A DNA stretch of 64,000 nucleotides, from the NCBI GenBank assembly GCA_035688265.1, contig DASSNE010000056.1:4255-68254 (forward strand). Direction: 5' to 3'. Source of the DNA: Gammaproteobacteria bacterium (GTDB taxonomy: Bacteria > Pseudomonadota > Gammaproteobacteria > Natronospirales > DASSBR01). Positions 23,587-64,000 of the stretch are shown one piece after another; the stretch's first letter is position 1; every line of letters begins with the position of its first letter. Under the pieces are notes generated by a model that saw only the letters and a list, made by a program, of their open reading frames with translations, had not been told where the DNA came from and made no database searches. The translations under genes were made by a program, and so were the position numbers.

Positions 23587-24258
23587 TTATTGCCAGCTTC
23601 TCACAGCCCGCTGAGCCTTATCGTTCAACGGTCGCGCAAGCAGCCCGGTATTGCTGATCCACACCTGGTAACGCGCTCCATCGGTCATCGGCAGATAGGT
23701 TGCGCTGCCGTAGCTGGCGTCGATGAACGGCAGCCAGCCGGCTTCATTATGAGCCAGGTTCCAGAGGCTGATCCCTTTCGGGTCGCTCAAGCCGACCACA
23801 CTCGGCGGTGCGGTCTGAGCCTGGTGCAGGTTGTCGTAGCGACCGTGGATACGCTCGATACGATAGAGCGGATCGAATCCCAGCAGCGTCGCGACGCTTT
23901 TCCATTTGAGGATGCGCGCGTCGAGTTGCCATTCGTCGCCGCGCAGGGTGACCTGCCGGTCGCGGCCGTCGGGAAAATGCAGGTCGACGGCAAATTGCTG
24001 CGGGCCCAGTTGCGCGAAGCTCAGCTCGGCCACCGGCCGCTCGTTGGTGAAACGCTGCCAGGTGAGGAGGTTGAGGCCGATCAGCAGCGCCACCGCGGCA
24101 ATGAGCGCGATGCAGCAGCCGCTCAACGTTTGCAGCGAACCGCGTACGAGCTGGCGGCGCCGAAAGCGCAACAGGCCGGACAGGATAACCAGCAGCGCGA
24201 ACGCGGCGATCACGATCACCGCGAGGTACAGCCAGCCACTTGTCCCCAATCCGTTCAT
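23587..24258 (-). CDS. Hypothetical membrane protein (two N-terminal TM helices)
   Basis: Start at 24258 ([26 protein letters not shown]). I recognise no family. Divergent from lptM-polA. Confidence 0.55.
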
Positions 24259-24305
24259 GCGGGTTCCTTTATACTCTCGTTTTTGTCCGAATCCGAGAAA
24301 GCGCC

Positions 24306-24467
24306 ATGCGCCTTTTTGCACTACTGGTACTCATAAGCCTGCTCGCCGGTTGCGGGCAGAAGGGGCCACTGTATCTGCCGCAGACAAAACCGGCGCCGGC
24401 GCATCCCGCCACGCCCGTACCGGCGACTGCCTCACTGCCGCAACCCACGACCCTGCCGCCGCAATGA
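24306..24467 (+). CDS. lptM: Small lipoprotein of the YifL/LptM type
   Basis: 53 aa: [26 protein letters not shown] followed by a Pro/Thr/Ala-rich tail. The GCG.KGPLY.P signature matches E. coli YifL/LptM. Its stop overlaps the polA ATG (ATGA). Confidence 0.65.
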
Positions 24468-36660: not shown

Positions 36661-36679
36661 ATTTTAAGAATTCTCGCCG

Positions 36680-38854: not shown

Positions 38855-38901
38855 CTTTTTGCCTCACCCCTGGCCACAACAGCCGACAGTTTGCGAACCG
38901 C

Positions 38902-39453
38902 CTACCTTGCCGCCTGCAGAAATGCAGGGCTTTCTATCAGCGCCCGCAAGTCGATTATTCCCCAAGCCTCCTCGCCACGGTGCCAGCCGCCGCGCAGCCA
39001 CTGCGCGACCGCCGGCAGCGATCCGGTCTCGAAATCGCCACCGTCGCTGTCGTGAAACCGCCGAAAACCGTATACCTCATCAACCAGCAGCCCGGCCGGG
39101 ATCTCGGCATGATCGACAGCCAGTACCCGGCTGGAGCGCGAAATCGAAGTCGCGCCGCCGTTCAGAAACCCTTTCAGGTCCGTGATCGGCAGCAACTGGC
39201 CGCGCACGTTGGCCACGCCCAGCAACCAGTCTTTCGACTGCGGCAGCCGGTGCGAGCCCGGATACGGCATCAGCTCGCGAATTTCCTCGCGCGCCGCCAC
39301 CAGTTTCAGCTCGCCGATGCGAAAGCCGAGGCCGACCCATTCGTCGTCGGCGCCCAGGCCGGTGCGATAGTCTGCCGCCACCACTCGCGCACGCGCTTCC
39401 AGCGCCTTCAACAACTCGAAGGGCTGGTTCGCGAGATCGGCGAGCGCCGGCAT
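38902..39453 (-). CDS. pilI: PilI CheW-like coupling protein
   Basis: 183 aa CheW domain. Position between pilH and pilJ. Its start overlaps the pilH stop. Confidence 0.8.
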   Translation of the reverse strand: MPALADLANQPFELLKALEARARVVAADYRTGLGADDEWVGLGFRIGELKLVAAREEIRELMPYPGSHRLPQSKDWLLGVANVRGQLLPITDLKGFLNGGATSISRSSRVLAVDHAEIPAGLLVDEVYGFRRFHDSDGGDFETGSLPAVAQWLRGGWHRGEEAWGIIDLRALIESPAFLQAAR

Positions 39454-39818
39454 CAGCCGCCGATAGCCTCTTTGAGTTTGCCGGTCAACTGCTCCTCGGT
39501 GATCGGCTTGACCAGGTAGTCGACGGCGCCCTGGCGCATGCCCCAGATCTTGTCGGTTTCCTGATCCTTGGTAGTGACGATCACCACGGGGATGGCGCTG
39601 GTATCCGCGTCGCGCGACAACTGCCGCGTCGCCTGGAAGCCGCTCATGCCCGGCATGACCACGTCCATGATGATTGCGTCCGGCTTTTCGGCCTTCGCCT
39701 GGGCCAGCCCGTCCTCGCCGTTTTCGGCGGTAATCACCTTGAAGCCGCCTTTTTCGAGCCAGTTCTTGAAGACGTGCACTTCGGTCGGCGAGTCATCGAC
39801 AATCAGCACTTTGGGCAT
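39453..39818 (-). CDS. pilH: PilH single-domain response regulator
   Basis: 121 aa receiver: VLIVDDSPTE ... DAIIMDVVMPGMSG ... KP. Confidence 0.85.
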   Translation of the reverse strand: MPKVLIVDDSPTEVHVFKNWLEKGGFKVITAENGEDGLAQAKAEKPDAIIMDVVMPGMSGFQATRQLSRDADTSAIPVVIVTTKDQETDKIWGMRQGAVDYLVKPITEEQLTGKLKEAIGG

Positions 39819-39857
39819 TCAAGTATCTCCACTTCGTTGTTTAATCTGCACATTCAT

Positions 39858-40253
39858 TCAGGCCGCGGCGCCGCTGGCGTAGCGCTGGACCGCGCCAATC
39901 AGTTCGTCGCGGGTAAAGGGTTTGGTCAGGTACTGCTCGGAGCCGACGATGCGGCCGCGCGCGCGGTCGAACAGGCCGTCCTTGCTGGACAGCATGATGA
40001 CGGGCGTCTGCCGGAATTGCTTGTTGTGCTTGATCAGCGCGCAGGTCTGGTAGCCGTCGAGGCGCGGCATCATGATATCGACGAAGATGATGTCCGGCCG
40101 GTTGTCGGCGATCTTCGCGAGCGCCTCGAAGCCGTCCACCGCAGTGACGACTTCGCAACCTTCTTTGTTCAGCAGCGTCTCTGCCGTGCGGCGGATCGTT
40201 TTGCTGTCGTCGATGACAAGAATCTTGAGGCCCGTCATGTCGCTGGACGCCAT
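39858..40253 (-). CDS. pilG: PilG single-domain response regulator
   Basis: ATG at 40253 with GGGAG 5 nt upstream. Receiver: ILVIDDSKTIRR ... DIIFVDIMMPRLDG ... KP. Confidence 0.85.
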   Translation of the reverse strand: MASSDMTGLKILVIDDSKTIRRTAETLLNKEGCEVVTAVDGFEALAKIADNRPDIIFVDIMMPRLDGYQTCALIKHNKQFRQTPVIMLSSKDGLFDRARGRIVGSEQYLTKPFTRDELIGAVQRYASGAAA

Positions 40254-40519
40254 GTTGCTCCCTACCTCCGGCCCGCTAAATTCCCGCGGGGACAATTAGT
40301 TCTATTCGGGTGCTGATGTTTTAGCATAATATCTAGGCATAATCCATTGGTACATCTGGGAAAGTCCCGATGCTGCCGCGATGATTGGCCAGCCGCCGTT
40401 TTTCGCCATTGGAGCGGCGGGCTTGAGCGTTTGTCGCGAAGCGGCTTTGCGCGCGCCGCCGCCACGCCTACAATCGGTAACGGCTGCCAATCTTGAGACT
40501 TTGGGAAGGAACTGTAAAC

Positions 40520-42372: not shown

Positions 42373-42427
42373 CCGCATGCGGCAAGAAGAAGCGCACCGG
42401 CGACACTTGATAAAGGAGAACTTCGTG

Positions 42428-44785
42428 ATGACGGAATTGGCTGGATTGCTTCTTCGGCGAGCCCTCAACCTCGCTGTCGGCGCAGGATGTGCATTTGCGC
42501 TGGCCGCCGGGCCCGTGGCACTGGCGAAGACGGATGTTTCGGCGACCACGGCATCACCGGACCCCGCGGCGCTGGTGAACGTTTTCATCGGTACCGGAAA
42601 TGGCGGCAAGGTCACGGGCAACATCGACACCTTTCCCGGCGCCGCGATGCCGTTCGGCATGCTTACCTGGAGTCCGACGACCAAGTCGCGCCCGGCAGGT
42701 GGCGATTATTTTTATCCGGATTCCTCGATAGGCGGCTTCAGCCTGACGCACATCTCGGGTCCCGGTTGTTCGGCGGCGGGCGAAATCCCGATTCTGCCGA
42801 CGGTGGGGACGGTCGGACAACACCCGGATGCGGCTGCCGAACGATTCGATCATGCTCACGAACATGCGACCCCCGGCGAATATCAGGTCACGCTCGCAGC
42901 AGGGACGCCTTCGGCGATCGACGTCAAGCTGACCGCGACGACGCGAACCGGAATCGGCGTTTTCCGTTTTCCGGCAACACATGCTGCCAACTTCCTGTTC
43001 AAGGTATCCGACGGGCAAACCGTCAGCCCGACTTCGACAGTTCGTATTATCGGCAACAAGGCTGTGGCGGGAGCGGAAACGTCCGGCCATTTTTGCGGTA
43101 CGTCGCGTACAGCGACCCTGTATTTCGTCGCCCGCTTCGACCGGCCGTTTCATGCTCACGGGACGTGGGCCGCAAGCGGTCCGCAATCCGGCCGGCGCGC
43201 GGCCACCGGCGCGCACACCGGCGCGTGGGTGAGCTTCGATACGACGCGAAACCGCGCCATCAAGCTCAAAGTGGCGATTTCCTATGTGAGCATCGCCAAC
43301 GCGTGGGCCAATCTGAAAGCGGAAGACAGCGGCTGGAACTTTGAGGCGGTGGCGGCCCACGCGCATAACGCGTGGAATCGGCTGCTCTCCCGCATCACGG
43401 TCGCCGGCGGCACCCATGACCAGCAGGTGCAATTTTACTCGGCGCTGTATCACACGCTGCTGCACCCGAACGTGTTTTCCGACGCCAACGGCGACTACAT
43501 CGGCTTTGACGACAAGGTGCACCACCTCGCCAACGGTCAGAACCTCCAGTACGCCAACTTTTCCGGCTGGGACATCTATCGTTCCGAAGTGCCACTGCTG
43601 GCGTTGCTGGTGCCGCACCGGGTCAACGACATGGTGACCTCGCTGTTGAACGACCAGGCGCAGGGCGGATGGCTGCCGAAGTGGGGATACGACAACGACT
43701 ACACAGGGGTCATGAATGGCGATGCCGCCGACCCGATCATCGCCGAAGCCTATGCCTTCGGGGCGCGCCATTTCGACACCAAGGCGGCACTGGACGCCAT
43801 GATAAAGGGCGCGACGCAAACTTCTCAGCCGGGCACCTGGTCCGGGGGCTATATCGAGCGTCCACACCTTCGAGCCTACCTGCGGCTCGGCTACGTGCCG
43901 GGCAACACGTCCGAGACGCTGGAATACGCCACGGCCGACTTCGCGATCGCCCGGTTTGCGAAATTCCTGGGCGACAGCACGACTTACCGGAAATTCCTCG
44001 CGCATTCCGCAAACTGGTCCAACGTCTTCGATAAGAAGGCAAAATTTCGCGGCTACGCCGGCTACATGGAACCGCGCGCGGCCAACGGCACATTCCCGTC
44101 CGGCTCGGCCTTTCAAATTCGCGCGCATTCTTACGGACAGCGGGGCTTCGAGGAAGGCAACACAATTCAGTACACGTGGATGGTGCCGCAGGATTTGCAC
44201 GGCTTGATCGAGGCAATGGGAGGCGACAGCAATGCGACGGCGCGCCTGGACATTCTATTCAAACACCTGAATGTCGGCCCCAACGAACCGTACTATTGGG
44301 CCGGCAACGAGCCGAGCCTCAATATGCCGTGGGTTTACGACTACAGCGGCGCACCGTGGAAAACACAGGCCGTCGTCCATCGGCTGATCGACAAGGTGTA
44401 TTCAGCCACGCCCGGTGGCGAACCCGGCAATGACGACCTGGGCGCCATGAGTTCGTGGCTTGTCTGGGCTTACCTCGGGATGTATCCGGAAACGCCGGGG
44501 GCGCCTGTTTTGGTACTCGGTGCGCCGGTGTTTCCCGAGGCGACGCTGCATCTAGGTAACAGTCATCAAGTGACCATTCGAGCGTCCAACGCCTCCACAC
44601 AAAGCTACGTGCAGGCTCTCGAGATCGATGGCAAAACGTGGATGAAAGACTGGCTGCCGGCCTCGTTGATCCTCGGCTCGACACCAAGCGATCTTAACAC
44701 CCACCTCTCCTTCACCATGAGCCACAGCCCGAACAAGGCTTGGGGCGCGGCGCCGGCGGACAGGCCGCCCTCCTTCGCGCCGTGA
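42428..44785 (+). CDS. Glycoside hydrolase family 92 (alpha-mannosidase-like), secreted
   Basis: AAGGAG at 42413-42418. Signal peptide. GH92-type blocks: FIGTGNGG ... PGAAMPFGMLTWSP, FSGWDIYRSEVPLL, and WAGNEPSLNMPWVYDY. Confidence 0.8.
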   Translation: MTELAGLLLRRALNLAVGAGCAFALAAGPVALAKTDVSATTASPDPAALVNVFIGTGNGGKVTGNIDTFPGAAMPFGMLTWSPTTKSRPAGGDYFYPDSSIGGFSLTHISGPGCSAAGEIPILPTVGTVGQHPDAAAERFDHAHEHATPGEYQVTLAAGTPSAIDVKLTATTRTGIGVFRFPATHAANFLFKVSDGQTVSPTSTVRIIGNKAVAGAETSGHFCGTSRTATLYFVARFDRPFHAHGTWAASGPQSGRRAATGAHTGAWVSFDTTRNRAIKLKVAISYVSIANAWANLKAEDSGWNFEAVAAHAHNAWNRLLSRITVAGGTHDQQVQFYSALYHTLLHPNVFSDANGDYIGFDDKVHHLANGQNLQYANFSGWDIYRSEVPLLALLVPHRVNDMVTSLLNDQAQGGWLPKWGYDNDYTGVMNGDAADPIIAEAYAFGARHFDTKAALDAMIKGATQTSQPGTWSGGYIERPHLRAYLRLGYVPGNTSETLEYATADFAIARFAKFLGDSTTYRKFLAHSANWSNVFDKKAKFRGYAGYMEPRAANGTFPSGSAFQIRAHSYGQRGFEEGNTIQYTWMVPQDLHGLIEAMGGDSNATARLDILFKHLNVGPNEPYYWAGNEPSLNMPWVYDYSGAPWKTQAVVHRLIDKVYSATPGGEPGNDDLGAMSSWLVWAYLGMYPETPGAPVLVLGAPVFPEATLHLGNSHQVTIRASNASTQSYVQALEIDGKTWMKDWLPASLILGSTPSDLNTHLSFTMSHSPNKAWGAAPADRPPSFAP

Positions 44786-49500: not shown

Positions 49501-50592
49501 ATGCAAACCATCGGCATCATTGGCGCAGGCCAGCTCGGCCGCATGATGGCGCTCGCCGGCTACCCGCTCGGCCTGCGCTTCGTGTTTCTGGACAAGGACG
49601 CCGGAACCCCGGGCGGCCAGGTCGGCGACATCATTGTCGGCGCGTTCGATGATTCGGCCAAGCTCGCGGAACTGGCGGAGCGGGCCGACATACTGACCTT
49701 CGACTTTGAAAACGTTCCGGCCGGGCCACTCGCGCCCATTGCCGACAAGATGCCCGTATGGCCGCCGGCCGATGCGCTTGAAACCGCCCAGGACCGGCTG
49801 CTCGAAAAGCGCCTGTTCGTCGCCCAAGGCCTGGCGACGCCGCAGTTCGAGCCGGTCGATACGCTCGCCGAACTCAAGACAGCCGTCGACAAGATCGGCC
49901 TGCCCGCGGTGCTGAAAACCCGCCGCCTGGGCTACGACGGCAAGGGCCAGCGCATGCTGCGCGAGCCGGGCGACATCGAACCGGCCTGGAATGACCTCGG
50001 CGGCGTGCCGCTGATCCTCGAGCAGTTCATCGAATTCGACCGCGAAGTCTCGATCGTCGGCGTGCGTTCGACCGGCGGCGAATGCCGGTTCTACCCGCTC
50101 GCCCACAACACCCACCACCACGGCATCCTGCATCACTCGATCGCGCCGTACGTGGACGCGGACTTGCAGGCGAAGGCCGAAGGCCATTCGCGCACGCTGA
50201 TGGAGCATTTCGGCTATGTGGGCGTGCTGACGATTGAATTCTTCGTCAAGGGCAGCAACCTGATCGCCAACGAAATCGCGCCGCGCGTGCACAACTCCGG
50301 CCACTGGACTATTGAAGGCGCCGAAACCAGCCAGTTCGAAAATCATATCCGCGCGGTTGCCGACCTGCCGCTGGGCGACACGAAGCCGATCGGGCACTCG
50401 GCGATGGTGAACTTCCTGGGCGAGATGCCGCCGCTCGACGAGGTCCTGAAGATCCCCGGCGCGCACTACCACGACTACGGCAAGAGCCCCCGCCCCGGCC
50501 GCAAGTTGGGGCATTGCACATTGCGGGCGGCGACACGGGACGAACTCGATGCGCGGTTCGAACAACTGCGTTTGGTTATGAACCCTGCATAG
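49501..50592 (+). CDS. purK: N5-carboxyaminoimidazole ribonucleotide synthase
   Basis: IGIIGAGQLGRM, ATP-grasp blocks, and NEIAPRVHNSGHWT. Confidence 0.9.
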   Translation: MQTIGIIGAGQLGRMMALAGYPLGLRFVFLDKDAGTPGGQVGDIIVGAFDDSAKLAELAERADILTFDFENVPAGPLAPIADKMPVWPPADALETAQDRLLEKRLFVAQGLATPQFEPVDTLAELKTAVDKIGLPAVLKTRRLGYDGKGQRMLREPGDIEPAWNDLGGVPLILEQFIEFDREVSIVGVRSTGGECRFYPLAHNTHHHGILHHSIAPYVDADLQAKAEGHSRTLMEHFGYVGVLTIEFFVKGSNLIANEIAPRVHNSGHWTIEGAETSQFENHIRAVADLPLGDTKPIGHSAMVNFLGEMPPLDEVLKIPGAHYHDYGKSPRPGRKLGHCTLRAATRDELDARFEQLRLVMNPA

Positions 50593-50605
50593 CCCACCCT
50601 CTTAC

Positions 50606-50725
50606 TCCCTCTCCCTTCGGGAGAGGGTTGGGGTGAGGGTGCCCAGTAGCGGCAGCGCTTGTTATACCTCACGTTGTGGCGAAGCCGAACCCTCACCCCC
50701 AGCCCCTCTCCCGAAGGGAGAGGGG
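50606..50725. repeat. Inverted pair of REP-like elements (CCCTCTCCC-TTCG-GGGAGAGGG + GGGGTGAGGGT type)
   Basis: Copy 1 at 50606-50640 and copy 2 at 50689-50725 in inverted orientation. Each contains its own 9-bp hairpin. Translations give the common ...PSPEGRG.../...GEGWGEG... repeat peptides. Confidence 0.65.
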
Positions 50726-50775
50726 AGCAAGAGAATTTGCCGCGCGCCCGACCGGCGGCTCATAATGACCTTTAG

Positions 50776-52689
<1,914 letters not shown>

Positions 52690-54313: not shown

Positions 54314-55027
54314 GTGGTCGTGATCGGGCTTGCGGTAGCAGCGATTATCGCGGTTGCCGCCATCATCTCTGCCGCCCTGTTTTACCGGCAGGCGCGGCAT
54401 CTCCAGCGCGAGCTGCACCGCCTCGAAGCGCGCCGCCTGCGCAGCCAGCTCAATCCGCATTTCCTGTTCAACGCGCTCAACGCCGTCTCCGAACTCGGCT
54501 ACCACGATCCGGGCGCGGCGGATCGCACCGTCACGCAGCTCGGCAACCTGCTCCGGATTTCACTCGACACCGACAACCGCTACGAAATCTCGCTGAAGGA
54601 CGAACTGGACATCCTCCGGCGCTATCTCGACATCCAGCAGACGCTGCTGCAGAGCCGGCTGCAGATTCATTTCGACATCGCGCCGGACACGCTGGCCGCC
54701 CGCGTGCCGAGCATGATCCTGCAACCGCTGGCGGAAAATGCCGTCACCCATGGCATTACGCCGACCCGCGGCGGCTGCATCGACATCGCCGCGCGCCGCG
54801 AAGGCGACCGACTGGTGCTCGAAATCCGCGACGACGGGCCCGGTCTCACCAACGCCGGCTGCGAGCGTGTGGGCCTGGGCAACACCCGCAGCCGCCTTGC
54901 GCACCTGTACGGCCGTGCGCAAGACTTTGCCCTCAAGAGTGGTGCCGATGGCTGGACCGTCGCGCGCATCAGTCTCCCGTTCCACGAAGCCTGGGCCTAC
55001 GATGAAGACGCGCACGCTAATTATTGA
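54314..55027 (+). CDS. Minimal LytS/YehU-type sensor histidine kinase (single N-terminal TM, no sensor domain)
   Basis: H-box LRSQLNPHFLFNALNAV (His_kinase type) plus HATPase_c (LAENAVTHG ... RDDGPGL ... GLGNTRSRL). An in-frame stop at 54287 limits the N-terminus to about 25 hydrophobic residues. Confidence 0.8.
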   Translation: MVVIGLAVAAIIAVAAIISAALFYRQARHLQRELHRLEARRLRSQLNPHFLFNALNAVSELGYHDPGAADRTVTQLGNLLRISLDTDNRYEISLKDELDILRRYLDIQQTLLQSRLQIHFDIAPDTLAARVPSMILQPLAENAVTHGITPTRGGCIDIAARREGDRLVLEIRDDGPGLTNAGCERVGLGNTRSRLAHLYGRAQDFALKSGADGWTVARISLPFHEAWAYDEDAHANY

Positions 55028-55719: not shown

Positions 55720-55773
55720 CACGACTCGTCCCTCGATCGCCACGATTCATCCCACCACCGCCGCGATTCGTCA
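55720..55773 (+). promoter_or_regulatory. Three phased direct repeats, candidate LytTR operator upstream of the transporter operon
   Basis: CACGACTCGTCC (55720), CACGATTCATCC (55741) and CGCGATTCGTCA (55762). The start-to-start spacing is exactly 21 bp both times. A possible -10 TAAATT lies at 55805-55810 and the RBS GAGGA at 55829-55833. Confidence 0.5.
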
Positions 55774-55838: not shown

Positions 55839-57068
55839 ATGGACAAGAAAGAAGCACTCGACGCGCTCCGGATCGACCGCGACGCCGAGCCGCCGCAGAA
55901 TGGCCGCGGCGGCCGCATCGCGGGTGCCATCTTTGCGGTGATCGTCCTGATCGGCGGCGCCGCAGCATGGGCTTTCCTCGCGCCGCACGCGATGGCGGTC
56001 GAAACCGCGCCGGTCGAAGTCACCGGCGGCGGCGCGGCGAGTAACGCGGGCAGCGTGCTGAATGCCTCCGGCTATGTCGTCGCCGAGATGTCCACGACCG
56101 TCGCCTCGCAAACCGTCGGCATGATCAAGCAGGTGCTGGTCACCGAAGGCATGCACGTCCACAAGGGGCAGGTGCTGGCGTACCTCGAGGACGACGCGGC
56201 CCGCGCCAGGGTCGCGACCGCCAAAAGCCAGGTGCAGGCCAACAAGGCTGCCGTCGCGCAGGCGCAGGCGAAGCTCGCCGAAGACCGGCTGACGCTCAAG
56301 CGCACCCGGTCGATGGCCGAGCAGCGTCTGACCAGCGCGGCCGACCTTGACCAGGCCGAGGCCGCCGTCAATATGGACGAGGCCGCTGTCAAGCAGGCCC
56401 AGGCACAGGTTGCAGTCGCAGAAGCCAATCTCCGGTCCGCCCAAATCGAACTCGGCTACACCACTATCCGCGCACCGTTCACCGGCGTTGTCACCGAAAA
56501 GTACGCGCACCCGGGCGAAATGATCTCGCCCGCGGCGGTGGGCGGTTTTACCAAGACCGGCGTGTGCCAACTCGTCGATATGAATTCGCTCGAAATCGAT
56601 GTGGACGTCAACGAAGCCTATATCCAGCGAGTCCACGACGGCATGCGAGTCGAAGCGGTGCTGGACGCCTACCCCGACTGGCGCATCCCGGCGCACGTGA
56701 TCAGCGTAGTACCGACCGCGAACCGCGAGAAGGCGACTGTCAAGGTGCGTATCGCATTCGACAAGCTCGACCCGCGCATCGTGCCGGAGATGGGCGTGCA
56801 GGTCTGGTTTTACGAGAAGGCGCCGAAGAAAGCCGAGCACACGCCGGTCGCGCTGCTGGTGCCGTCGAAAGCCGTTCACGGCGGCGGCACCGACCGCTAT
56901 GTGTTCCTGCTCGCCGACGGCCACGCCGAGCGCCGCAGCGTCACCGTCGGTCCCGAGCAAAACGGCAAGGTCACCGTGCTGTCCGGCCTGTCCGGCGGGC
57001 AGCGCGTCATCGTCTCGTCACCGAAGCCGCTGCGCGACGGTATTGCAGTTGAAGCGAAGCAGATCTAA
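55839..57068 (+). CDS. MacA/HlyD-type periplasmic adaptor (membrane fusion protein)
   Basis: N-terminal TM anchor, a long coiled-coil hairpin (AKSQVQANKAAVAQAQAKLAEDRL ... AAVKQAQAQVAVAEANL), and IRAPFTGVV lipoyl/beta-barrel blocks. Confidence 0.85.
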   Translation: MDKKEALDALRIDRDAEPPQNGRGGRIAGAIFAVIVLIGGAAAWAFLAPHAMAVETAPVEVTGGGAASNAGSVLNASGYVVAEMSTTVASQTVGMIKQVLVTEGMHVHKGQVLAYLEDDAARARVATAKSQVQANKAAVAQAQAKLAEDRLTLKRTRSMAEQRLTSAADLDQAEAAVNMDEAAVKQAQAQVAVAEANLRSAQIELGYTTIRAPFTGVVTEKYAHPGEMISPAAVGGFTKTGVCQLVDMNSLEIDVDVNEAYIQRVHDGMRVEAVLDAYPDWRIPAHVISVVPTANREKATVKVRIAFDKLDPRIVPEMGVQVWFYEKAPKKAEHTPVALLVPSKAVHGGGTDRYVFLLADGHAERRSVTVGPEQNGKVTVLSGLSGGQRVIVSSPKPLRDGIAVEAKQI

Positions 57069-57105
57069 ACCGAACCAGATTGAAGACAGCAACAAGGAGA
57101 TAGCC

Positions 57106-57840
57106 ATGTCCGCCACTGAAGCCACTGTCGAGAAAGAAACCACCGCCACCGCCGAACCGGCGCTGGTGCAACTGAAAGATGTCGTCAAGACCTACCAGCG
57201 CGGCTCGGAAACCGTGCAGGTGCTGCAGAAACTCAGCCTCGACGTGCCGCGCGGTGATTTTCTCGCGCTGATGGGCCCGTCCGGCTCCGGCAAGACGACG
57301 TTGATGAACCTGCTCGGCGGCCTCGACAAGCCGACCTCGGGCCAGGTCATCATCGACGATCAGCCGATTCACCAGCTTTCCGACAGCGCCCTGGCAAAAT
57401 GGCGGGCCAGGCACGTCGGCTTTGTCTTCCAGCTCTACCACCTGCTGCCGGTGCTGAACGCCGAGCGCAACATCGAGCTGCCCCTGCTGCTGACCAAGCT
57501 GTCGCACAGCGAGCGCAAAAAGCGCGTCGCCGCCGCGTTGTCGCTGGTCGGCCTGTCGGAACGCGGCAAACACAAGCCGAGCGAGCTGTCGGGTGGCCAG
57601 GAACAGCGCGTCGGCATCGCCCGCGCAATCGTCACCGACCCCACGATCCTGCTCTGCGACGAGCCGACCGGCGACCTCGACCGCAAGGCCGGCGACGAAA
57701 TCCTCGAGCTGCTGCAGGTGCTCAACGAGGAACATGGCAAGACCATCGTGATGGTCACCCACGATCCCCACGCCGCCGCCTGTGCCAAGCGCACATTGTT
57801 CATGAACAAGGGCGTGTTGAGCGAAGAGCCGGAAGCCTGA
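57106..57840 (+). CDS. LolD/MacB-type ABC ATPase (stand-alone NBD)
   Basis: AAGGAGA RBS. Walker A GPSGSGKTT, signature LSGGQEQR, Walker B LLCDEPTGDLD, and H-loop VTHD. Confidence 0.9.
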   Translation: MSATEATVEKETTATAEPALVQLKDVVKTYQRGSETVQVLQKLSLDVPRGDFLALMGPSGSGKTTLMNLLGGLDKPTSGQVIIDDQPIHQLSDSALAKWRARHVGFVFQLYHLLPVLNAERNIELPLLLTKLSHSERKKRVAAALSLVGLSERGKHKPSELSGGQEQRVGIARAIVTDPTILLCDEPTGDLDRKAGDEILELLQVLNEEHGKTIVMVTHDPHAAACAKRTLFMNKGVLSEEPEA

Positions 57841-57842
57841 TC

Positions 57843-58991
57843 ATGTTCGCGCTCGTCTGGACCAACTTCACCCGCCGCAAAGGCCGGCTCGCGCTGACGC
57901 TCGCATCGGTGCTGATTGCCTTCCTCCTGTTCGGCATGCTGATGGCGGCGCGGCAGGTGTTCAACCCGCAGCTCAGCAAAAGTGACCAGTCGCGGCTGAT
58001 CACCGTCAACAAGGTCAGCCGCGGCACGCCGTTACCCATCGCCTATGCGCAGCGGATCCGGCAGGTGCCGGGCATACGCGCGGCCGCTTACGCTACGTTC
58101 ATGCTCGGCTGGTACCAAAAGCGCGAAAACGCATTCGCCGTAATCGCCGCGCCGGCGAAGGGCCTGTTCGACACGTTCCCGGTCACCGTCAAACCGGAAC
58201 AAAAGAAGGCTTGGCTCAACGACCGCGGCGGTGCGCTCGCCACGCCGGCGCTGATGAAGGCCTACGGCTGGAAAATCGGCCAGCACGTGCCGGTCATGTC
58301 CACGCTGCAGAAGAAGGACGGCGGTTCCACCTGGGACGTCACCATCGACGGAGTAGCCACGAACAAGGACCATCCGGATGCCAAGGTGCAGCAGTTGATC
58401 GTCCATTACGATTACGTCAATGAGGGCCGGGCAAGCGGCAAGGACACCGCCATGATGTTCTTCGAGGTGCCAGACGATCCGGTCAAGGCGACCTCGGTTG
58501 CTATGGCAATCGACAAGATATTCGAGAACGCGTCACCGCAAACCAAGACTTCGACGACCAAGTCGGTGGTCCATAACGCCATCCGGCAGGCCGGGGACAT
58601 CGGCGGCATCATTACCGACGTCGCCATCGCCGTGTTTTTCTCAATGCTGCTGGTCGTCGGCGCAATCATGTTCCAGTCCGCACGTGAGCGGCATACGGAA
58701 TTCGCGGCGCTACGCGCGCTCGGCTTCACCCGCGGCTCCATTTTGCGCATGGTCATCGGTGAATCGCTATTGACTTGCCTGATCGGCGGGCTGATTGGCA
58801 TCGGCATTGCCGCGGGGCTCATCGCGATTTTGCCAAACGCACTCAGCAACTTCCCGTCGTCGATGACTCTCACCGGCGTCGCGGTGCTGGTCGCCGTCGG
58901 CCTGATGATTGCTTTCGGATTGATCGCGGCAGCCGCACCCGCCGGTCAACTCTGGCGGCTGTCGATTCGCGAAGCGCTCGGGAGGACGTAA
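57843..58991 (+). CDS. FtsX-fold ABC permease, type A (pair 1)
   Basis: 382 aa: TM1, a roughly 220-aa periplasmic domain, then 3 TM. N-terminus MFALVWTNFTRRKGRLALTLASVLIAFLLFG and FtsX block ERHTEFAALRALGFTR. Confidence 0.85.
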   Translation: MFALVWTNFTRRKGRLALTLASVLIAFLLFGMLMAARQVFNPQLSKSDQSRLITVNKVSRGTPLPIAYAQRIRQVPGIRAAAYATFMLGWYQKRENAFAVIAAPAKGLFDTFPVTVKPEQKKAWLNDRGGALATPALMKAYGWKIGQHVPVMSTLQKKDGGSTWDVTIDGVATNKDHPDAKVQQLIVHYDYVNEGRASGKDTAMMFFEVPDDPVKATSVAMAIDKIFENASPQTKTSTTKSVVHNAIRQAGDIGGIITDVAIAVFFSMLLVVGAIMFQSARERHTEFAALRALGFTRGSILRMVIGESLLTCLIGGLIGIGIAAGLIAILPNALSNFPSSMTLTGVAVLVAVGLMIAFGLIAAAAPAGQLWRLSIREALGRT

Positions 58992-58992
58992 C

Positions 58993-60171
58993 ATGCTGAG
59001 CCAGACTTTCACCCTGTTCAAACTGAACCTGCGCAACGCATTCAGCCGGCCGGTTTTACCGCTGATCGTCATCATCGGCTTCTTTGCGGTGGTGCTGGTA
59101 CTCGTATCGGTGCTCTCCATCGGCCAGGGCCTCGGCCAAACCTTCAGCCGCGCGAATGCGACGGATGTCGCAATGGTCATGTCGAACGGGGCATTCACCG
59201 AATCACGCAGCAATTTGACTGAAGATGCGGTGCACGCCATCGCGTCGAAACCGGGCGTCGCGCAAGGTGCCAACGGCCCGTTGGTGTCGCCGGAAGCCCT
59301 GACCACCGTGATCGTGCCCAAGCGCGGCAGCGGCATCGACAGCAACGTCGTGCTGCGCGGCGTTACCGCTGACGCCTTCAAGGTGCACAACAAGGTTCGC
59401 ATCATTGCGGGGCGCCGCTTCAAGACCGGCGTCAATGAAGTCATCGTCGGCAGGCAAGCCGTTAACGAGTACCAGAACCTGAATATCGGCGACACGGTAC
59501 ACATCGGCAAGGGCGACTGGAAGGTCGTCGGCATCTTCGCCGCCGGCGGCAACCTCCGCGAATCTGAAATCTGGGCGGACGCGCGCCGCGTGCAGGATGC
59601 GATGCACATGGGCAATTCCTACTCCGATGCATGGGTGCAACTGACCTCGCCGGCCGCGTTCAAGCAATTCAAGGCCAAGGTGGAGAAGGATCCGCGCCTG
59701 AACGTGCAGGCGAAAACAGAAAAGGACTATTACGACAATCTCGCCCAAGGCGCGACCGGTATCGTTGCGGTCGTCGGCTATGCGATCGGCATTCTGATGG
59801 CACTCGGCGCGATTATCGGTGCAATCAATCTGCTTTACACCAATCTCGCCGCCCGCCTCGGGGAGATGGCGACGCTGCGCGCCGTCGGCTATCGGCGCGC
59901 ACCGGTGTTGATCGCCACCCTGCTCGAAGCGCTGACGTTCGCGCTGATCGGCGGCATTATCGGGGGCGGCGTCGCGTACGCCGCGTTCGACGGCTACCAG
60001 GCCGGGACGCTCGCGGGCGGCATTCAGCAGGTGGCGTTCCAGTTCGCGGTCACGCCGGGCCTGCTCGTCGGCGGCATCGTCTTCGCGCTGATCATGGGCT
60101 TCTTCGGCGGATTGTTCCCGGCAATTCGTGCGGCGCGGCTGCCGATCACGAAAGCGCTCCGGGAGGCCTGA
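58993..60171 (+). CDS. FtsX-fold ABC permease, type B (pair 1)
   Basis: 392 aa. LNLRNAFSRP, GPLVSPE, SPAAFKQFKAKVEKDPRLNV, EMATLRAVGYRR, and C-terminus FPAIRAARLPITKALREA. Starts 1 nt after the previous stop. Confidence 0.85.
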   Translation: MLSQTFTLFKLNLRNAFSRPVLPLIVIIGFFAVVLVLVSVLSIGQGLGQTFSRANATDVAMVMSNGAFTESRSNLTEDAVHAIASKPGVAQGANGPLVSPEALTTVIVPKRGSGIDSNVVLRGVTADAFKVHNKVRIIAGRRFKTGVNEVIVGRQAVNEYQNLNIGDTVHIGKGDWKVVGIFAAGGNLRESEIWADARRVQDAMHMGNSYSDAWVQLTSPAAFKQFKAKVEKDPRLNVQAKTEKDYYDNLAQGATGIVAVVGYAIGILMALGAIIGAINLLYTNLAARLGEMATLRAVGYRRAPVLIATLLEALTFALIGGIIGGGVAYAAFDGYQAGTLAGGIQQVAFQFAVTPGLLVGGIVFALIMGFFGGLFPAIRAARLPITKALREA

Positions 60172-60176
60172 GCGGA

Positions 60177-61322
60177 ATGAAATTCGTGCCGCTGATCTGG
60201 CGCAACCTGCTGCGCAAAAAAACGCGCACCGTGTTTACGCTGTTGTCGGTGCTGTGCACGTTTCTGCTGTTCGGCTTCCTGATGGCCGTGCGCCAGGGTT
60301 TTGTGACCGGCGCGCGGTTGCCGGGCGCGGACGTCATTTTCACGATGCCGAAAGCCGGCGGCAGCGAGGGCATGCCGCAAAGCTACGGCGCCCGCATCGC
60401 TGCCGTTGCCGGCGTCGCCGATGTCATGCGCATCGGCGGCGCCGGGTTCTATTTCCAGACGCGAAAACAAACCGTCGGCGTCGGGGCCGTGGAACCCGCC
60501 ATGCTGTTTCGGATGTTCCCGGCACTCAACGTGCCGCGCGCTCAGCGCGAGAAGTGGGAGCACGACCGCATCGGCGCGATCGTTCGCGACGACATTGCCA
60601 AGCGATTCGGCTGGAAGGTCGGCGACCATATCCCGTTGTTGTCCTACGAGCAGCCGGGCAAAACGCTGGAAGTCAATATCGACGGCATCCAGGACACGCA
60701 TACTGACAGCATTCACGTCGGCTTCGGGCAGTTGTACGTCCATTTTGATTATCTGAGCACGTGGTCGGGCAAGGACTCGGTCGATGCCTTTGTCGAGCGA
60801 GCGGCGAACCCGCGGGAGACTTCCGCCGTCGCAAAACGGATTAATGCGGCGCTCGCCAATTCGTCCGTGCCATCCAAATCGGTTCCGATGCAGGCCATGG
60901 TGCAAAGCGTCATTTCCCGCTTCGGCGACATTGGCGCAATCGCAATCGCGATTGCTATCGCCGCCCTCATCGGCATGCTGATCGTCACTGCCAACACGAT
61001 GGCGCAAAGTGTGCGCGAACGGGTCGCGGAACTGGCGGCGATGCGCGCGGTGGGCTTCACGCGGTCGCAACTCGTGTGGCTGGTGCTCGGCGAGTCGCTC
61101 TGTCTGACCGCCATTGGCGGCCTGATCGGGCTCGGCCTGGCCTGGATCACGACCGTGCTGCTCGGCCCGGCGTTTTCGAAGACGATTCCGGGACTCTATT
61201 TCTCGCCGGCCGTCATCGCCATCGGCATCGGGCTGATCGTGCTGCTCAGCCTGGTGGCTGCGCTGTCGCCGAGCATTCACGCCGTGCGCCTGCAGGTCGC
61301 CTCGGCGCTGGGGGTCCGCTGA
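60177..61322 (+). CDS. FtsX-fold ABC permease, type A (pair 2)
   Basis: 381 aa. N-terminus MKFVPLIWRNLLRKKTRTVFTLLSVLCTFLLFG and ERVAELAAMRAVGFTR. Confidence 0.85.
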   Translation: MKFVPLIWRNLLRKKTRTVFTLLSVLCTFLLFGFLMAVRQGFVTGARLPGADVIFTMPKAGGSEGMPQSYGARIAAVAGVADVMRIGGAGFYFQTRKQTVGVGAVEPAMLFRMFPALNVPRAQREKWEHDRIGAIVRDDIAKRFGWKVGDHIPLLSYEQPGKTLEVNIDGIQDTHTDSIHVGFGQLYVHFDYLSTWSGKDSVDAFVERAANPRETSAVAKRINAALANSSVPSKSVPMQAMVQSVISRFGDIGAIAIAIAIAALIGMLIVTANTMAQSVRERVAELAAMRAVGFTRSQLVWLVLGESLCLTAIGGLIGLGLAWITTVLLGPAFSKTIPGLYFSPAVIAIGIGLIVLLSLVAALSPSIHAVRLQVASALGVR

Positions 61323-61324
61323 CG

Positions 61325-62500
61325 ATGCAAAGTATCAATGTCATCGCCCTCAATTTGCGCAATCTTCGCGCGCGCGCGAGCGTGGCGAGCGGCGCGGTGC
61401 TGGGGTTCGCAGCGGTGGTCGCGGTACTGGTCGCCGCGCTGTCGATCAGCGCAGGGTTCCGCGCCGCCTTCGGCGCGACCGGCGCCGACGATGTCGCCGT
61501 CGTCCTGAGCGGCAAAGCCGATACCGAGGCCACCAGCACCCTGAGCGCCGATGACATCCATGCGATTGCGTCGCTGCCCGGTGTCGCGCACACCGCTGAC
61601 GGCCCGCTTGCCGCGCCCGAAATGGTCGGCACGCTGGACGTGAACTACAAGCAGAGCGACAAGGATGCCAGCATCGTCTTTCGCGGCGTGACCGATAGCG
61701 CGCGCCGCCTCCGCCCCGCCGTCCAGCTGATCAAGGGTCGCTGGTTCAAGCCGGGGCTCAACGAACTGGTGGTCGGAGCAGCTGCGGCGGCGCGCTTCAA
61801 AGATCTGGCCATTGGCAAAAGCATCAAGTACCGCGGCAGACAGTGGCAGGTCGTGGGCATCTTTTCTGCCGGCCGGAGCGTCTTCGGTAGCGAAGCCTGG
61901 ACCGACGTCAACGTGCTGCAGGACGCCCATAAACGGCCCAATCTGTATTCGGCCGACTTTGTGAAGGTGACGTCGCCGGCGGCGTTCGCCGGCTTCAATA
62001 AAGCCGCCACACACGATCCGCGGCTCGATGTCAGCGTCAAGCGGGCGAGCGATTACTACGCGGAGCAGGCGCGCGGCCTGGGGAAATTTATTGCCGTCGC
62101 CGGTGCGATTATTGCCGGCGTCATGGGCATTGCCGCGATCTTCGGCGCCTTGAACACCATGTATACGATGGTATCGGTGCGCGGCCGCGAAATCGCCACA
62201 CTGCGCGCGCTGGGGTTCGGTCGGCTGCCGGTGCTGCTGTCGGTGGTCGTCGAGGCGCTGGTGCTGGGCCTGCTGGGCGGTATACTGGGCGGCATCATCG
62301 CGTGGTTGCTGTTCAATGGCTACCAGGCGAGCACCTTCAATACGTCCAACGCCGGTCAGGTGGCGTTCGCGTTTGCGGTCACGCCGACCGCCATCGGAGC
62401 CGGCATCGCGTTCGCGCTGATCCTCGGTCTGATTGGTGGCTTTTTCCCGGCCATCCGTGCCGCGCGGTTACCGGTGGCGACGGCGTTGCGGGAAACCTGA
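61325..62500 (+). CDS. FtsX-fold ABC permease, type B (pair 2)
   Basis: 391 aa. LNLRNLRARA, GPLAAPE, SPAAFAGFNKAATHDPRLDV, EIATLRALGFGR, and C-terminus FPAIRAARLPVATALRET. Confidence 0.85.
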   Translation: MQSINVIALNLRNLRARASVASGAVLGFAAVVAVLVAALSISAGFRAAFGATGADDVAVVLSGKADTEATSTLSADDIHAIASLPGVAHTADGPLAAPEMVGTLDVNYKQSDKDASIVFRGVTDSARRLRPAVQLIKGRWFKPGLNELVVGAAAAARFKDLAIGKSIKYRGRQWQVVGIFSAGRSVFGSEAWTDVNVLQDAHKRPNLYSADFVKVTSPAAFAGFNKAATHDPRLDVSVKRASDYYAEQARGLGKFIAVAGAIIAGVMGIAAIFGALNTMYTMVSVRGREIATLRALGFGRLPVLLSVVVEALVLGLLGGILGGIIAWLLFNGYQASTFNTSNAGQVAFAFAVTPTAIGAGIAFALILGLIGGFFPAIRAARLPVATALRET

Positions 62501-62504
62501 CGCG

Positions 62505-63662
62505 ATGAAATTCTTCCCCCTCATCTGGAGCGCTTTCACGCGGCGCAAGGCGCGCACCGTGTTCACGTTCCTGTCGGTCGTGGTCGCGTTCGTGCTGTTC
62601 AGCGTGCTGGCGGCGGTGCGCCAGGGGATGGTCGGACAGTTGAGTATGGTGAATGCGCAGCGGCTGCAGGTGGTGGCGAAGGCTTCGCCGGGTTCGCTTA
62701 TGCCGGTGCATTACGTGTCAAAGATCGCCCGGGTCCCGGGGGTGGTGGCCGTGTCGCCGATGATCGGAATCGGCGGTCATTATCGGGATCCCAAAAACCG
62801 GCTGAACGTGCTGTTCGTGAATGCCCGGACGATCGGCAAGATTTTCCCCGGCTTCAAAATGGGCGGACATCAGAGTGCCCTGCTGAAGGATCAGCAGGCT
62901 GCCATTGCGGGCCCGGTACTTGCCAGGCGCATGGGCTGGCATGTCGGCCAGACGATTCCGGTGCAATCGAGCACCCCGAAGAAAGACGGCAGCACGACAT
63001 GGTATTTCCACCTCGTCGGCATCTATCACGCCGACTTGCCGAAGGCCTATCAATCGTTCTTCATTGCGCATTATCAGTATTTCAATCAGGCGGTGGCCTC
63101 GCAGGAATTCAGAAACACGGCCGGCCAGTTCTTCGTGCGCGTCAATGACGCGCGCCATATTTCGCAAATCGCGACCGCGATAGATGCGCAGTTCGCGAAC
63201 TCATCGCCGCAGACGTATACCCAGTCGGTGCGCATGCAGGTGCTGTCGTACCTGCATGCCTTCGGTGATGTCGGCGCGATCGTTATCGGCGTCGGCGTGG
63301 CGGTCTTTTTCACGCTGCTGTTGATCGTGACCAACACGATGGGCCAATCGATTCGTGAACGCACGGCCGAGTTCGCCGTGCTGAAGTCGTTCGGCTTCAA
63401 TCGCCTGCGCGTGGCGGTACTTGTGTTGGCCGAAGCGCTGCTGCTGACGATCGTCGGCGGCATCGCCGGCATCGGGATCGGTTACGTCGTGGTCGGCCTG
63501 CTGACACCCAGCCTGAGCAACGCGCTCCAGACCTTCGGCCTCACGAGTGCCGCGACCGCCTGGGGCGTCGCGCTGGCAGTCATATTCGGCTTGCTGGCGA
63601 GCCTGTTCCCGGTACGGCAGGTCACGCGCCTGCGTACTGCTGCCGCGCTCGGAAAACGGTGA
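62505..63662 (+). CDS. FtsX-fold ABC permease, type A (pair 3)
   Basis: 385 aa. N-terminus MKFFPLIWSAFTRRKARTVFTFLSVVVAFVLFS and ERTAEFAVLKSFGFNR. Confidence 0.85.
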   Translation: MKFFPLIWSAFTRRKARTVFTFLSVVVAFVLFSVLAAVRQGMVGQLSMVNAQRLQVVAKASPGSLMPVHYVSKIARVPGVVAVSPMIGIGGHYRDPKNRLNVLFVNARTIGKIFPGFKMGGHQSALLKDQQAAIAGPVLARRMGWHVGQTIPVQSSTPKKDGSTTWYFHLVGIYHADLPKAYQSFFIAHYQYFNQAVASQEFRNTAGQFFVRVNDARHISQIATAIDAQFANSSPQTYTQSVRMQVLSYLHAFGDVGAIVIGVGVAVFFTLLLIVTNTMGQSIRERTAEFAVLKSFGFNRLRVAVLVLAEALLLTIVGGIAGIGIGYVVVGLLTPSLSNALQTFGLTSAATAWGVALAVIFGLLASLFPVRQVTRLRTAAALGKR

Positions 63663-63667
63663 AAAGT

Positions 63668-64000
63668 ATGGCCTGGTTAAAGGAAACCTTGTCGGTCTGC
63701 GGCTGGAACTTCCGCATGGCGGCGGCGCGATTCCAGTCTTCGCTGATCGCGATCGTCGGCTTTCTCGGCGTCGTGCTGGTGGTGGTCGCCCTGCTGTCGA
63801 TTCGAGCGGGATTTCAAAGCGTACTGTCGCACACCGGCTCGGACAGCGTGGCGATCGTCACTTACCAGGGCGCGGGCTCGCTCAGTCGCCAGGCGGTCAC
63901 CGTAATCGGCCAGGCGCCCGGGGTCGCGCATGGCCCGAACGGCCCGCTCGCGATGGGCGACTACACCGCCTCGGCGCGCGCGGTCCAGCGCGGCACGGGC
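63668..64000 (+). CDS. FtsX-fold ABC permease, type B (pair 3), 3' end outside the window
   Basis: Not in the ORF track because it has no stop inside the window. My translation from the ATG at 63668 is open for 111 codons: MAWLKETLSVCGWNFRMAAARFQSSLIAIVGFLGVVLVVVALLSIRAGFQ ... APGVAHGPNGPLAMGD. This aligns with the N-termini of the two type B genes. Confidence 0.75.
   Translation, partial: MAWLKETLSVCGWNFRMAAARFQSSLIAIVGFLGVVLVVVALLSIRAGFQSVLSHTGSDSVAIVTYQGAGSLSRQAVTVIGQAPGVAHGPNGPLAMGDYTASARAVQRGTG

Follow-up and report, generated by a model that had tools for sequence, protein, structure and literature searches.

The ABC (ATP-binding cassette) systems of type VII closest to the locus described here are LolCDE, MacAB-TolC and DevBCA-HgdD. 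The locus lies at the 3' end of a 64,000-nt stretch of DNA from a soil gammaproteobacterium (contig DASSNE010000056.1 of assembly GCA_035688265.1; the whole stretch is referred to below as the window) and comprises a two-component system, a periplasmic adaptor or membrane fusion protein (MFP), one stand-alone ATPase or nucleotide-binding domain (NBD) and six permeases that alternate between two sequence types, A and B. LolC-LolE is named in reviews and a recent paper as the sole heterodimeric type VII permease (PMC8277102, PMC5985334, PMC12646458), and none of these describes arrays of permease pairs. Like the window locus, LolCDE combines two adjacent, distant FtsX-fold paralogues with one stand-alone ATPase of the same NBD subfamily, and the order NBD-A-B in the window, with A and B only 18% identical, reproduces this arrangement of paired permeases and a lone ATPase. 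However, LolCDE has a single pair, docks LolA by a hook of LolC and is devoid of an adaptor or outer-membrane channel, whereas in the window operon the pair is multiplied and an MFP gene stands at the head.

MacAB-TolC combines an adaptor, a type VII transporter with a periplasmic core domain and a TolC-family channel. The window locus has the first two; no channel gene lies inside the window, which ends within B3, but relatives have a TolC-like gene beside the operon that may be the housekeeping TolC. MacAB-TolC expels periplasmic substrates by mechanotransmission, which is likely also the mode of the window system. MacB is a homodimer of a fused NBD-permease chain, whereas the window has a separate NBD gene and two permease types in three versions. 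The DevBCA-HgdD system of Anabaena, like the window, has separate genes for the ATPase (DevA), adaptor (DevB) and permease (DevC), and in Anabaena one outer-membrane factor is common to at least seven paralogous Dev-type pumps (PMC8277102). The sharing of HgdD is thus a precedent for component sharing among type VII exporters, but every Dev system possesses an ATPase and adaptor of its own, a single permease type and an operon dispersed from the others, whereas in the window one ATPase and one adaptor accompany three pairs.

Sharing of an energizing module is also known outside this class. In group II energy-coupling factor (ECF) transporters, and in systems served by the MsiK and MsmK ATPases, one such module serves several interchangeable substrate-specific membrane components; these differ from the window locus in being importers of another ABC fold, in that their parts are usually not encoded in one operon, and in having no adaptor or channel. 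In the ADOP group of Acidobacteria, FtsX-fold permeases far outnumber the adjacent ATPase genes, which implies ATPase sharing, but ADOP permeases are single chains with two fused FtsX units (~800 aa) that are scattered in the genome, whereas those of the window have one unit per chain and are arrayed. Tandem arrays of MacB-like permeases may also occur in Bacteroidota genomes. No account of heterodimeric MacB-like tripartite pumps or of permease-pair arrays was found in the literature, although most subscription journals were not covered and this is therefore no proof. The remark of a first-pass annotation of this DNA that it knew of no described system with this organization has so far been borne out in the literature searched.

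We propose, with a probability of roughly 0.55, that the locus encodes a LytTR-regulated tripartite type VII (MacB-like) efflux system whose membrane part is modular and consists of three alternative A/B cassettes. Alternative A/B heterodimers sharing one ATPase and one adaptor, as the first-pass annotation had suggested by analogy with LolCDE, are the best-supported reading of the sequence data. The parts and the fold are familiar, and it is the apparent multiplication into exchangeable cassettes behind one engine that is undescribed in the literature searched.

Organization of the locus

Ten consecutive genes on the + strand encode the kinase, regulator, adaptor and ATPase, followed by six permeases in the order A-B-A-B-A-B, the last of which is cut by the window edge. 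All the pump genes, from the adaptor through B3, start with ATG. The features of the locus are as follows.

54314-55027, + strand: histidine kinase (LytS/YehU-type, His_kinase and HATPase_c), 237 aa; Pfam PF06580 (E 3.8e-21) and PF02518
55002-55715, + strand: response regulator with LytTR DNA-binding domain, 237 aa; Pfam Response_reg (E 2.6e-26) and LytTR (E 1.6e-22)
55720-55772, + strand: three direct repeats CRCGAYTCRTC, putative LytTR operator and promoter of the pump operon
55839-57068, + strand: periplasmic adaptor (MFP), 409 aa; TIGR01730 RND_mfp, Pfam HlyD_D23 and HlyD_3
57106-57840, + strand: stand-alone ABC ATPase (NBD) of LolD/MacB type, 244 aa; Pfam ABC_tran (E 2.2e-35)
57843-58991, + strand: permease A1, type A, cassette alpha, 382 aa; Pfam FtsX, AlphaFold2 model
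58993-60171, + strand: permease B1, type B, cassette alpha, 392 aa; Pfam MacB_PCD and FtsX, AlphaFold2 model
60177-61322, + strand: permease A2, type A, cassette delta, 381 aa; Pfam FtsX, weak MacB_PCD
61325-62500, + strand: permease B2, type B, cassette delta, 391 aa; Pfam MacB_PCD and FtsX
62505-63662, + strand: permease A3, type A, cassette gamma, 385 aa; Pfam FtsX
63668 to beyond 64000, + strand: permease B3, type B, cassette gamma, first 111 codons inside the window; assigned by identity to the last permeases of the related loci L001 and L002

From the NBD gene, which is the sole one of the operon, through A1, B1, A2, B2 and A3 to B3 the spacings are 2, 1, 5, 2, 4 and 5 nt. A promoter and terminator scan of the array found no promoter-like site, and terminator-like matches lay within coding sequence only; the 1-5 nt gaps together with the absence of internal promoter-like and intergenic terminator-like sites argue for one transcript. 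Open reading frames and alignments agree with the first-pass annotation in its gene coordinates, sizes, spacing of 1-5 nt and alternation of two types, as well as in its proposal of a sixth permease gene running off the window, which is B3.

The translated ATPase retains intact Walker A (GPSGSGKT), signature (LSGGQ), Walker B (LLCDEPTG) and H-loop (VTHD) motifs. The adaptor scores 209 bits against TIGR01730 RND_mfp, well above the cutoff of 94.9, and is anchored at its N-terminus by one transmembrane helix (TM) at residues 30-48.

Two permease types with a common fold

The type A copies are pairwise 34-38% identical over their full length (E 1e-57 to 1e-73). B1 and B2 share 47% identity (E 1e-100) and the B3 fragment is 37-39% identical to both, while comparison of A with B sequences gave weak C-terminal matches only. 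The all-against-all alignment hence separates the permeases into two sequence types, as had been claimed. Profiles built from 33 sequences each nevertheless reveal homology of A and B along the entire chain (hhalign probability 99.7%, 18% identity). Pfam searches identify FtsX in every one of the five complete permeases. MacB_PCD is matched by B1 and B2, and weakly by A2; a precomputed MacB_PCD match is also present in many A-type homologues.

Hydropathy predicts four hydrophobic helices in the permeases. In the AlphaFold2 models of both A1 and B1 (pLDDT 84 and 80, respectively) an N-terminal helix precedes TM1; between TM1 and TM2 lies a periplasmic domain of ~200 residues with mixed alpha/beta structure, and a short helix in the cytoplasm separates TM2 from TM3 and TM4. 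Foldseek searches against the PDB gave LolE, Spr0695 and MacB as best matches to A1 (E 1e-15), and MacB and LolE as best matches to B1 (E 1e-18 to 1e-15); the top matches overall to the two models were LolE/LolC, MacB, Spr0695, HrtB, YbbP, YtrF, with E-values from 1e-18 to 1e-10. Judged from these models, both types are complete membrane subunits of type VII ABC systems with the MacB/FtsX fold.

A motif that is invariant or nearly so in the 33-sequence alignments, RER..E.A.LKALGF in A and R.REIATLRALGF in B, is common to both types as R-E-x-A-x-L-[RK]-A-x-G-F. It maps between TM2 and TM3, to helix 284-292 of the A1 model and helix 285-297 of the B1 model, and the cytoplasmic helix that bears it corresponds in these models to the NBD-coupling helix of the fold. 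The earlier placement of the type A motif before TM2 was wrong, as in the A1 model it follows TM2. Conservation is uneven along the A paralogues, which are 26-34% identical in the periplasmic domain, 39-41% in the membrane domain and 52-62% in the N-terminal helix and TM1.

Comparison with curated families

Family membership was judged by the curated cutoffs of NCBIfam models, and none of the described systems could be assigned. The permeases score 22-35 bits against the LolCE model (TIGR02212, cutoff 362). LolC and LolE appear in a PDB sequence search with the permeases at E 0.005-0.2. The models nearest to the ATPase are those of LolD (TIGR02211; 240 bits, cutoff 307.75), the MacB NBD and YbbA. 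Lol-type lipoprotein sorting is not supported, given LolCE and LolD scores far under cutoff and the presence of an adaptor. Identity with MacB can likewise be rejected (NF007826, 19-21 bits for the permeases against a cutoff of 966), the NBD being a separate gene and the permeases being of two types; the adaptor reaches 124 bits against the MacA model (NF008606, cutoff 342). Scores against the DevBCA models are 21-30 bits for DevC (cutoff 290), 54 for DevB (cutoff 129) and 201 for DevA (cutoff 296). ADOP (TIGR03434) is the best, though weak, NCBIfam match for all five complete permeases, at 36-50 bits against a cutoff of 622, and these are chains of 381-392 aa with one FtsX unit each. The permeases also fall far under the cutoff of the curated FtsX model. 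Thus, with permeases, ATPase and adaptor all under the curated cutoffs of these subfamilies, the locus encodes type VII ABC components that lie outside every curated subfamily.

The A-B pair as a widespread unit

A B-type profile run against one genome per species gave at least 600 stretches, of which at least 578 encode relatives. The best 80 of these at least 578 loci, together with 50 metagenome loci and loci from exact look-up, were classified with hidden Markov models built from the A and B copies of the window, giving ~130 related loci. The commonest architecture among them is MFP-NBD-A-B (65 loci), which occurs in Acidobacteriota, Verrucomicrobiota and Gammaproteobacteria, and its cultured carriers include Cellvibrio, Rhodanobacter, Dyella and Pinirhizobacter. 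An A gene lies directly upstream of B on the same strand in 121 of the 127 cases with enough upstream sequence, with a median A-B stop-to-stop distance of 1193 nt. In databases these relatives are named no more specifically than "ABC transporter permease" or "FtsX-like permease". Far from rare, the single A-B pair is the usual form taken by a large and widespread family that is uncharacterized.

In a few loci (L091, L143) the A-B pair stands alone, with neither an NBD nor an MFP gene in the vicinity. One of these orphan pairs (L143, 7850-10179, GCA_035690945.1) lies beside a lytic transglycosylase gene in the same metagenome-assembled genome (MAG) as the array L001, so that this genome has a minimum of four A-B pairs; the B subunit of this orphan pair shares 54% identity with B2 of the window. 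The orphan pairs imply that use of an ATPase encoded elsewhere must occur in this family.

Cassettes and their inheritance

A search for the A-B repeat architecture in other genomes recovered further arrays, and among the loci classified those with several pairs are restricted to one small clade of soil and freshwater gammaproteobacterial MAGs. The relatives have one, two or three pairs per operon, with one NBD and one MFP per array, and a kinase-regulator pair is found syntenically upstream in every multi-pair locus. Neighbour-joining trees of the A and B subunits are congruent and resolve the same four orthogroups, alpha, beta, gamma and delta, with 100% bootstrap in both trees for beta, gamma, delta and alpha+beta. 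The two partners fall into one orthogroup in each of the 33 adjacent pairs classified. Pairs 1, 2 and 3 of the window are alpha, delta and gamma, respectively, and beta is absent. The order of cassettes is constant, with alpha followed by beta or delta and then gamma, and their content varies as follows.

alpha-delta-gamma: window, L001
alpha-delta, then a ribbon-helix-helix (RHH)-PIN toxin-antitoxin pair at the contig end: L086
alpha-gamma: L002, L089, L094, L098
alpha-beta-gamma: L087, L029
beta-gamma: L093, L097
alpha-beta, without adaptor: L083
gamma only: L095, L099, L100
alpha only: L004

These distributions indicate that cassettes are gained, lost and co-duplicated as A-B units. In L086, the closest relative of the window (B1 94% identical), the RHH-PIN pair (13554-14176) follows the delta cassette at the place that gamma occupies in the window, and the contig ends just after it. 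Two loci (L029, 12543-15110; L097, 6556-7707) have one or two extra gamma-type A genes without a partner B after the last pair. In L083 (5462-17005; also L084, L085) an NBD-A-B-A-B array has an ABC-2 type transporter on one side and an RHS/YD-repeat protein of 1699 aa on the other.

Monophyly of all array copies has a bootstrap of 91% in the B tree and 45% in the A tree, and B2 is 53-55% identical to its nearest non-orthologues, as against 44-47% to its in-array paralogues; one of the close outside pairs is the orphan pair in the MAG of L001. Given this proximity of B2 to outside pairs, delta may have come from elsewhere and not arisen by duplication in place, and an in-situ origin of all cassettes is doubtful.

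Array end and outer-membrane factor

An exact look-up of A3 matched no record, and the region past the window end is read from synteny. The 111-aa B3 fragment shares 89% of its residues with the sixth permease of L001, and 85% with the last of L002. In both these loci a gene for a TolC-like protein of 473-478 aa with two OEP repeats (E 5e-68) directly follows the last permease. The window array therefore most likely ends at six genes; the suggestion that it might be longer appears unlikely from this synteny, and the outer-membrane factor looked for past the array is found directly downstream in the syntenic relatives. The OEP gene is followed in L001 and L002 by waaA, hldE, a lipid A acyltransferase gene and a Kdo kinase gene, and in L087 and L089 the operon has the same OEP-rhodanese-PCMT-waaA-hldE block on its opposite side.

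Regulation

The kinase and regulator genes, which overlap by 26 nt, encode a LytTR-type two-component system, with a His_kinase (PF06580) protein paired with a Response_reg-LytTR protein. The 123-nt spacer between regulator and adaptor contains CRCGAYTCRTC at 55720, 55741 and 55762, at an exact phasing of 21 nt, and these are the only three matches within the 64-kb window. A TAAAT box lies ~30 nt downstream of the repeats. The repeat columns are invariant across four spacers (window, L001, L086, L002), and the sequence between the repeats varies. In more distant relatives there are two repeats at the 21-nt spacing, and a conserved CGCCTAAATTT box comes after them. Phased direct repeats are the binding sites of LytTR regulators, for which a phasing of 21 nt is typical. 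The repeats at 55720-55772 are accordingly a likely binding site of the LytTR regulator, and we predict that the operon is probably under direct control of the adjacent regulator.

By hydropathy the window kinase has one TM (residues 1-19) and then directly the H-box, with no sensor domain. The kinases of L087 and L089 extend ~130 aa further at the N-terminus, where they have several hydrophobic segments. A type VII transporter beside a two-component system is also known from BceAB-BceRS, where the kinase, devoid of a sensor domain, uses the transporter as its sensor (PMC12646458). The window kinase is like BceS in having no input domain and in its gene lying beside a type VII transporter, but BceB is a fused 10-TM protein and BceS/BceR are of HisKA and OmpR type, whereas the window pair is of His_kinase and LytTR type. 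By this analogy one may speculate that the window kinase depends on another protein for its signal, perhaps the transporter; a transporter-kinase contact in the window system would be pure speculation.

Proposed mechanism and its alternatives

In the mechanism that we propose, an ATPase dimer, one adaptor and a TolC-like channel, probably encoded just past the window end as in the relatives, would form a common machine, and the transmembrane part would be an A/B heterodimer as in LolCE. The operon would supply three alternative, co-evolved cassettes, alpha, delta and gamma, each pairing with the same ATPase dimer and adaptor, and the response regulator would switch on the whole operon from the three phased direct repeats. 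The cassettes appear to differ most in their periplasmic domains, which in this transporter class handle the substrate by mechanotransmission, and the divergence of these domains most likely serves to broaden or partition what leaves the periplasm or the outer leaflet. The near-universal A-B adjacency, the parallel divergence of A and B and the co-inheritance of cassettes point to a heterodimer; the single NBD and MFP genes per array, and the orphan pairs that need an ATPase from elsewhere, point to a shared engine; and the diverged periplasmic domains point to differing specificities. Efflux and a difference in substrates are thus suggested by sequence, and if MacAB, PvdRT, Spr0693-0695 and YknXYZ (PMC5985334) are taken as analogues, the most likely substrates would be toxic compounds or peptides that are periplasmic or embedded in the membrane.

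Several points weigh against this proposal. The periplasmic domains had been described as the most diverged part of the paralogues, which clearly holds for A but is marginal for B, where identity is 44% in the periplasmic domain and 51% in the membrane domain, a small gap. The unpartnered A genes of L029 and L097 mean that strict one-to-one pairing cannot be the whole story. To our knowledge, the tripartite type VII pumps of characterized structure (MacB, Spr0694-0695) are all homodimers. With three pairs, six protomers must come from one ATPase gene, a stoichiometry for which the proposal does not account. The neighbours of single-pair loci are unrelated housekeeping genes that give no consistent hint of a substrate. 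Finally, the OEP gene of the relatives is part of a conserved PCMT-rhodanese-TolC-waaA housekeeping block and may hence encode the general TolC of the cell.

The alternative that survives best, though we consider it unlikely, is that the six permeases are homodimeric, each A and B self-pairing with the shared ATPase as do MacB, DevC and HrtB, so that the locus would encode up to six pumps or a two-step relay and not three heterodimers. The solved efflux-type relatives among the Foldseek matches, LolCDE excepted, are indeed homodimeric (MacB, Spr0695, HrtB, YtrF), and A genes without a partner would be readily accommodated. Self-pairing is harder to reconcile with the position of A immediately upstream of nearly every B gene in several phyla, with the common orthogroup of the partners in every classified pair and the congruence of their trees, and with the fact that no locus was seen in which B is multiplied independently of A. 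Such co-inheritance is the pattern of obligate partners such as LolC and LolE.

Still less probable is combinatorial mixing, in which any A would pair with any B to give up to nine membrane modules, and co-inheritance would stem from adjacency only. The gamma-type A extras that lack their own B suggest that several A subunits may share one B, and the segments best conserved among the A paralogues are the N-terminal helix with TM1 and the coupling helix (43-64%), as compared to 34-38% overall. Yet the A and B partners of a cassette fall without exception into one orthogroup and show parallel divergence, as would be expected if cognate interfaces co-evolve, and no A-A-B-B or shuffled order is seen among the loci of the clade.

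We regard as improbable a non-efflux machine of envelope mechanotransmission akin to LolCDE, FtsEX or YbbAP-TesA, whose pairs would serve different envelope cargoes by extracting lipids, glycolipids or lipoproteins from the inner membrane, or would activate periplasmic enzymes. Type VII systems do have such non-efflux roles (PMC8277102; PMC12646458), and loci of the relatives adjoin waaA, hldE, the lipid A acyltransferase and Kdo kinase genes. However, these lipopolysaccharide genes form a conserved housekeeping block beside which the operon is placed in two different arrangements, the RND_mfp-family adaptor in the operon and the adjacent OEP gene in relatives are marks of tripartite export, and the LolCE, LolD and FtsX models give scores far under cutoff.

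Integrity and maintenance of the array

Repeated DNA within the array amounts to stretches of at most 144 nt that are 67-78% identical (74% for the 144-nt one), with a period of ~2330 nt corresponding to one A+B unit. Such short and diverged repeats show that the array is ancient and not an artefact of assembly. The three-pair array is also present in independent assemblies from other samples (L001, L087). The first-pass view that this is not a recent assembly-type duplication is therefore upheld, the paralogues being 34-47% identical.

The ratio of nonsynonymous to synonymous substitution rates (dN/dS), computed against orthologues in L001, L086 and L002, is 0.08-0.23 for every permease (for example, 0.10-0.12 for A2, 0.08 for B2 and 0.13 for A3), compared with 0.06 for the ATPase and 0.04-0.10 for the LytTR regulator. 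All permease genes of the window are under purifying selection, and pseudogenization can be ruled out from these ratios and the intact reading frames. The explanation that the array is a collapsed or expanded repeat, or a set of copies on the way to loss, which the metagenome-type contig and the variable pair number of the relatives might have suggested, is effectively refuted by the protein divergence of the paralogues, the shortness of the repeats, the independent assemblies and these dN/dS values.

The permeases have diverged further than the rest of the operon. The ATPase and adaptor are 93-97% identical to their L001 and L086 counterparts, as against 73-94% for the permeases, and dN against these loci is 0.01-0.04 for ATPase, adaptor and regulator and 0.04-0.22 for the permeases. 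A1 in particular is 73% identical to its L001 orthologue (L001, 8848-9999) with a dS of 0.94, whereas the ATPase, adaptor and regulator are 93-96% identical to theirs with a dS of 0.40-0.48. That A1 is far more diverged from L001 than the adjoining genes suggests recombination or cassette exchange within the operon.

Other features of the window

The spacer between purK and thiC contains a composite palindrome of ~135 nt (50599-50733) that folds into one long hairpin (-93.9 kcal/mol, z = -9.5), and each of its arms bears its own small hairpin, CCTCTCCC-N4-GGGAGAGG, at 50608 and 50705. Similar CCCTCTCCC...GGGAGAGGG motifs occur in the regulator-adaptor spacers of L089 and L029, from which the palindrome looks like a member of a family of repetitive extragenic palindromic (REP)-like or miniature inverted-repeat transposable element (MITE)-like elements of this lineage. 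The palindrome occupies the spacer upstream of thiC (50803-52689), and no thiamine pyrophosphate (TPP) riboswitch was detected in the region 50592-50803, whether the Rfam gathering score or a threshold of E up to 1 was applied. Scans of the whole 64-kb window for Rfam families and tRNAs found nothing.

A Pil-Chp-type chemosensory cluster on the - strand (31357-40295) encodes a ChpA-like kinase of 1766 aa (several Hpt domains together with CheW and receiver domains), a PilJ-like methyl-accepting chemotaxis protein and two single-domain response regulators. Other genes of the window form a housekeeping context and include the following.

64-3663: TamB-like protein
23906-27142: DNA polymerase I
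42377-44785: glycoside hydrolase of the GH92 alpha-mannosidase family

Implications

The data point to a very widespread, uncharacterized family of probably heterodimeric MacB-like pumps, present in at least 578 species-level genomes, and to a lineage in which the heterodimer became a swappable cassette behind a single ATPase and adaptor. For annotation, this suggests the rule that an A-then-B pair should be called as one transporter. More tentatively, and with distinctly less assurance than the efflux proposal itself, the locus may represent a cassette-type ABC exporter, the first type VII system in which a variable set of co-evolved heterodimeric cassettes, gained, lost and reordered from one close relative to another, would serve one ATPase dimer, one adaptor hexamer and one TolC-like channel. 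If so, the cassettes and orphan pairs of a strain would compete for a common engine and thereby set its spectrum of export or resistance, and the system would be the exporter counterpart of S-component sharing in ECF importers. If confirmed, it would provide a natural system for understanding how type VII periplasmic domains set substrate choice, with three versions on one engine, and would show how membrane modules of an exporter share one ATPase and how soil bacteria diversify their envelope defence through the gain and loss of cassettes.

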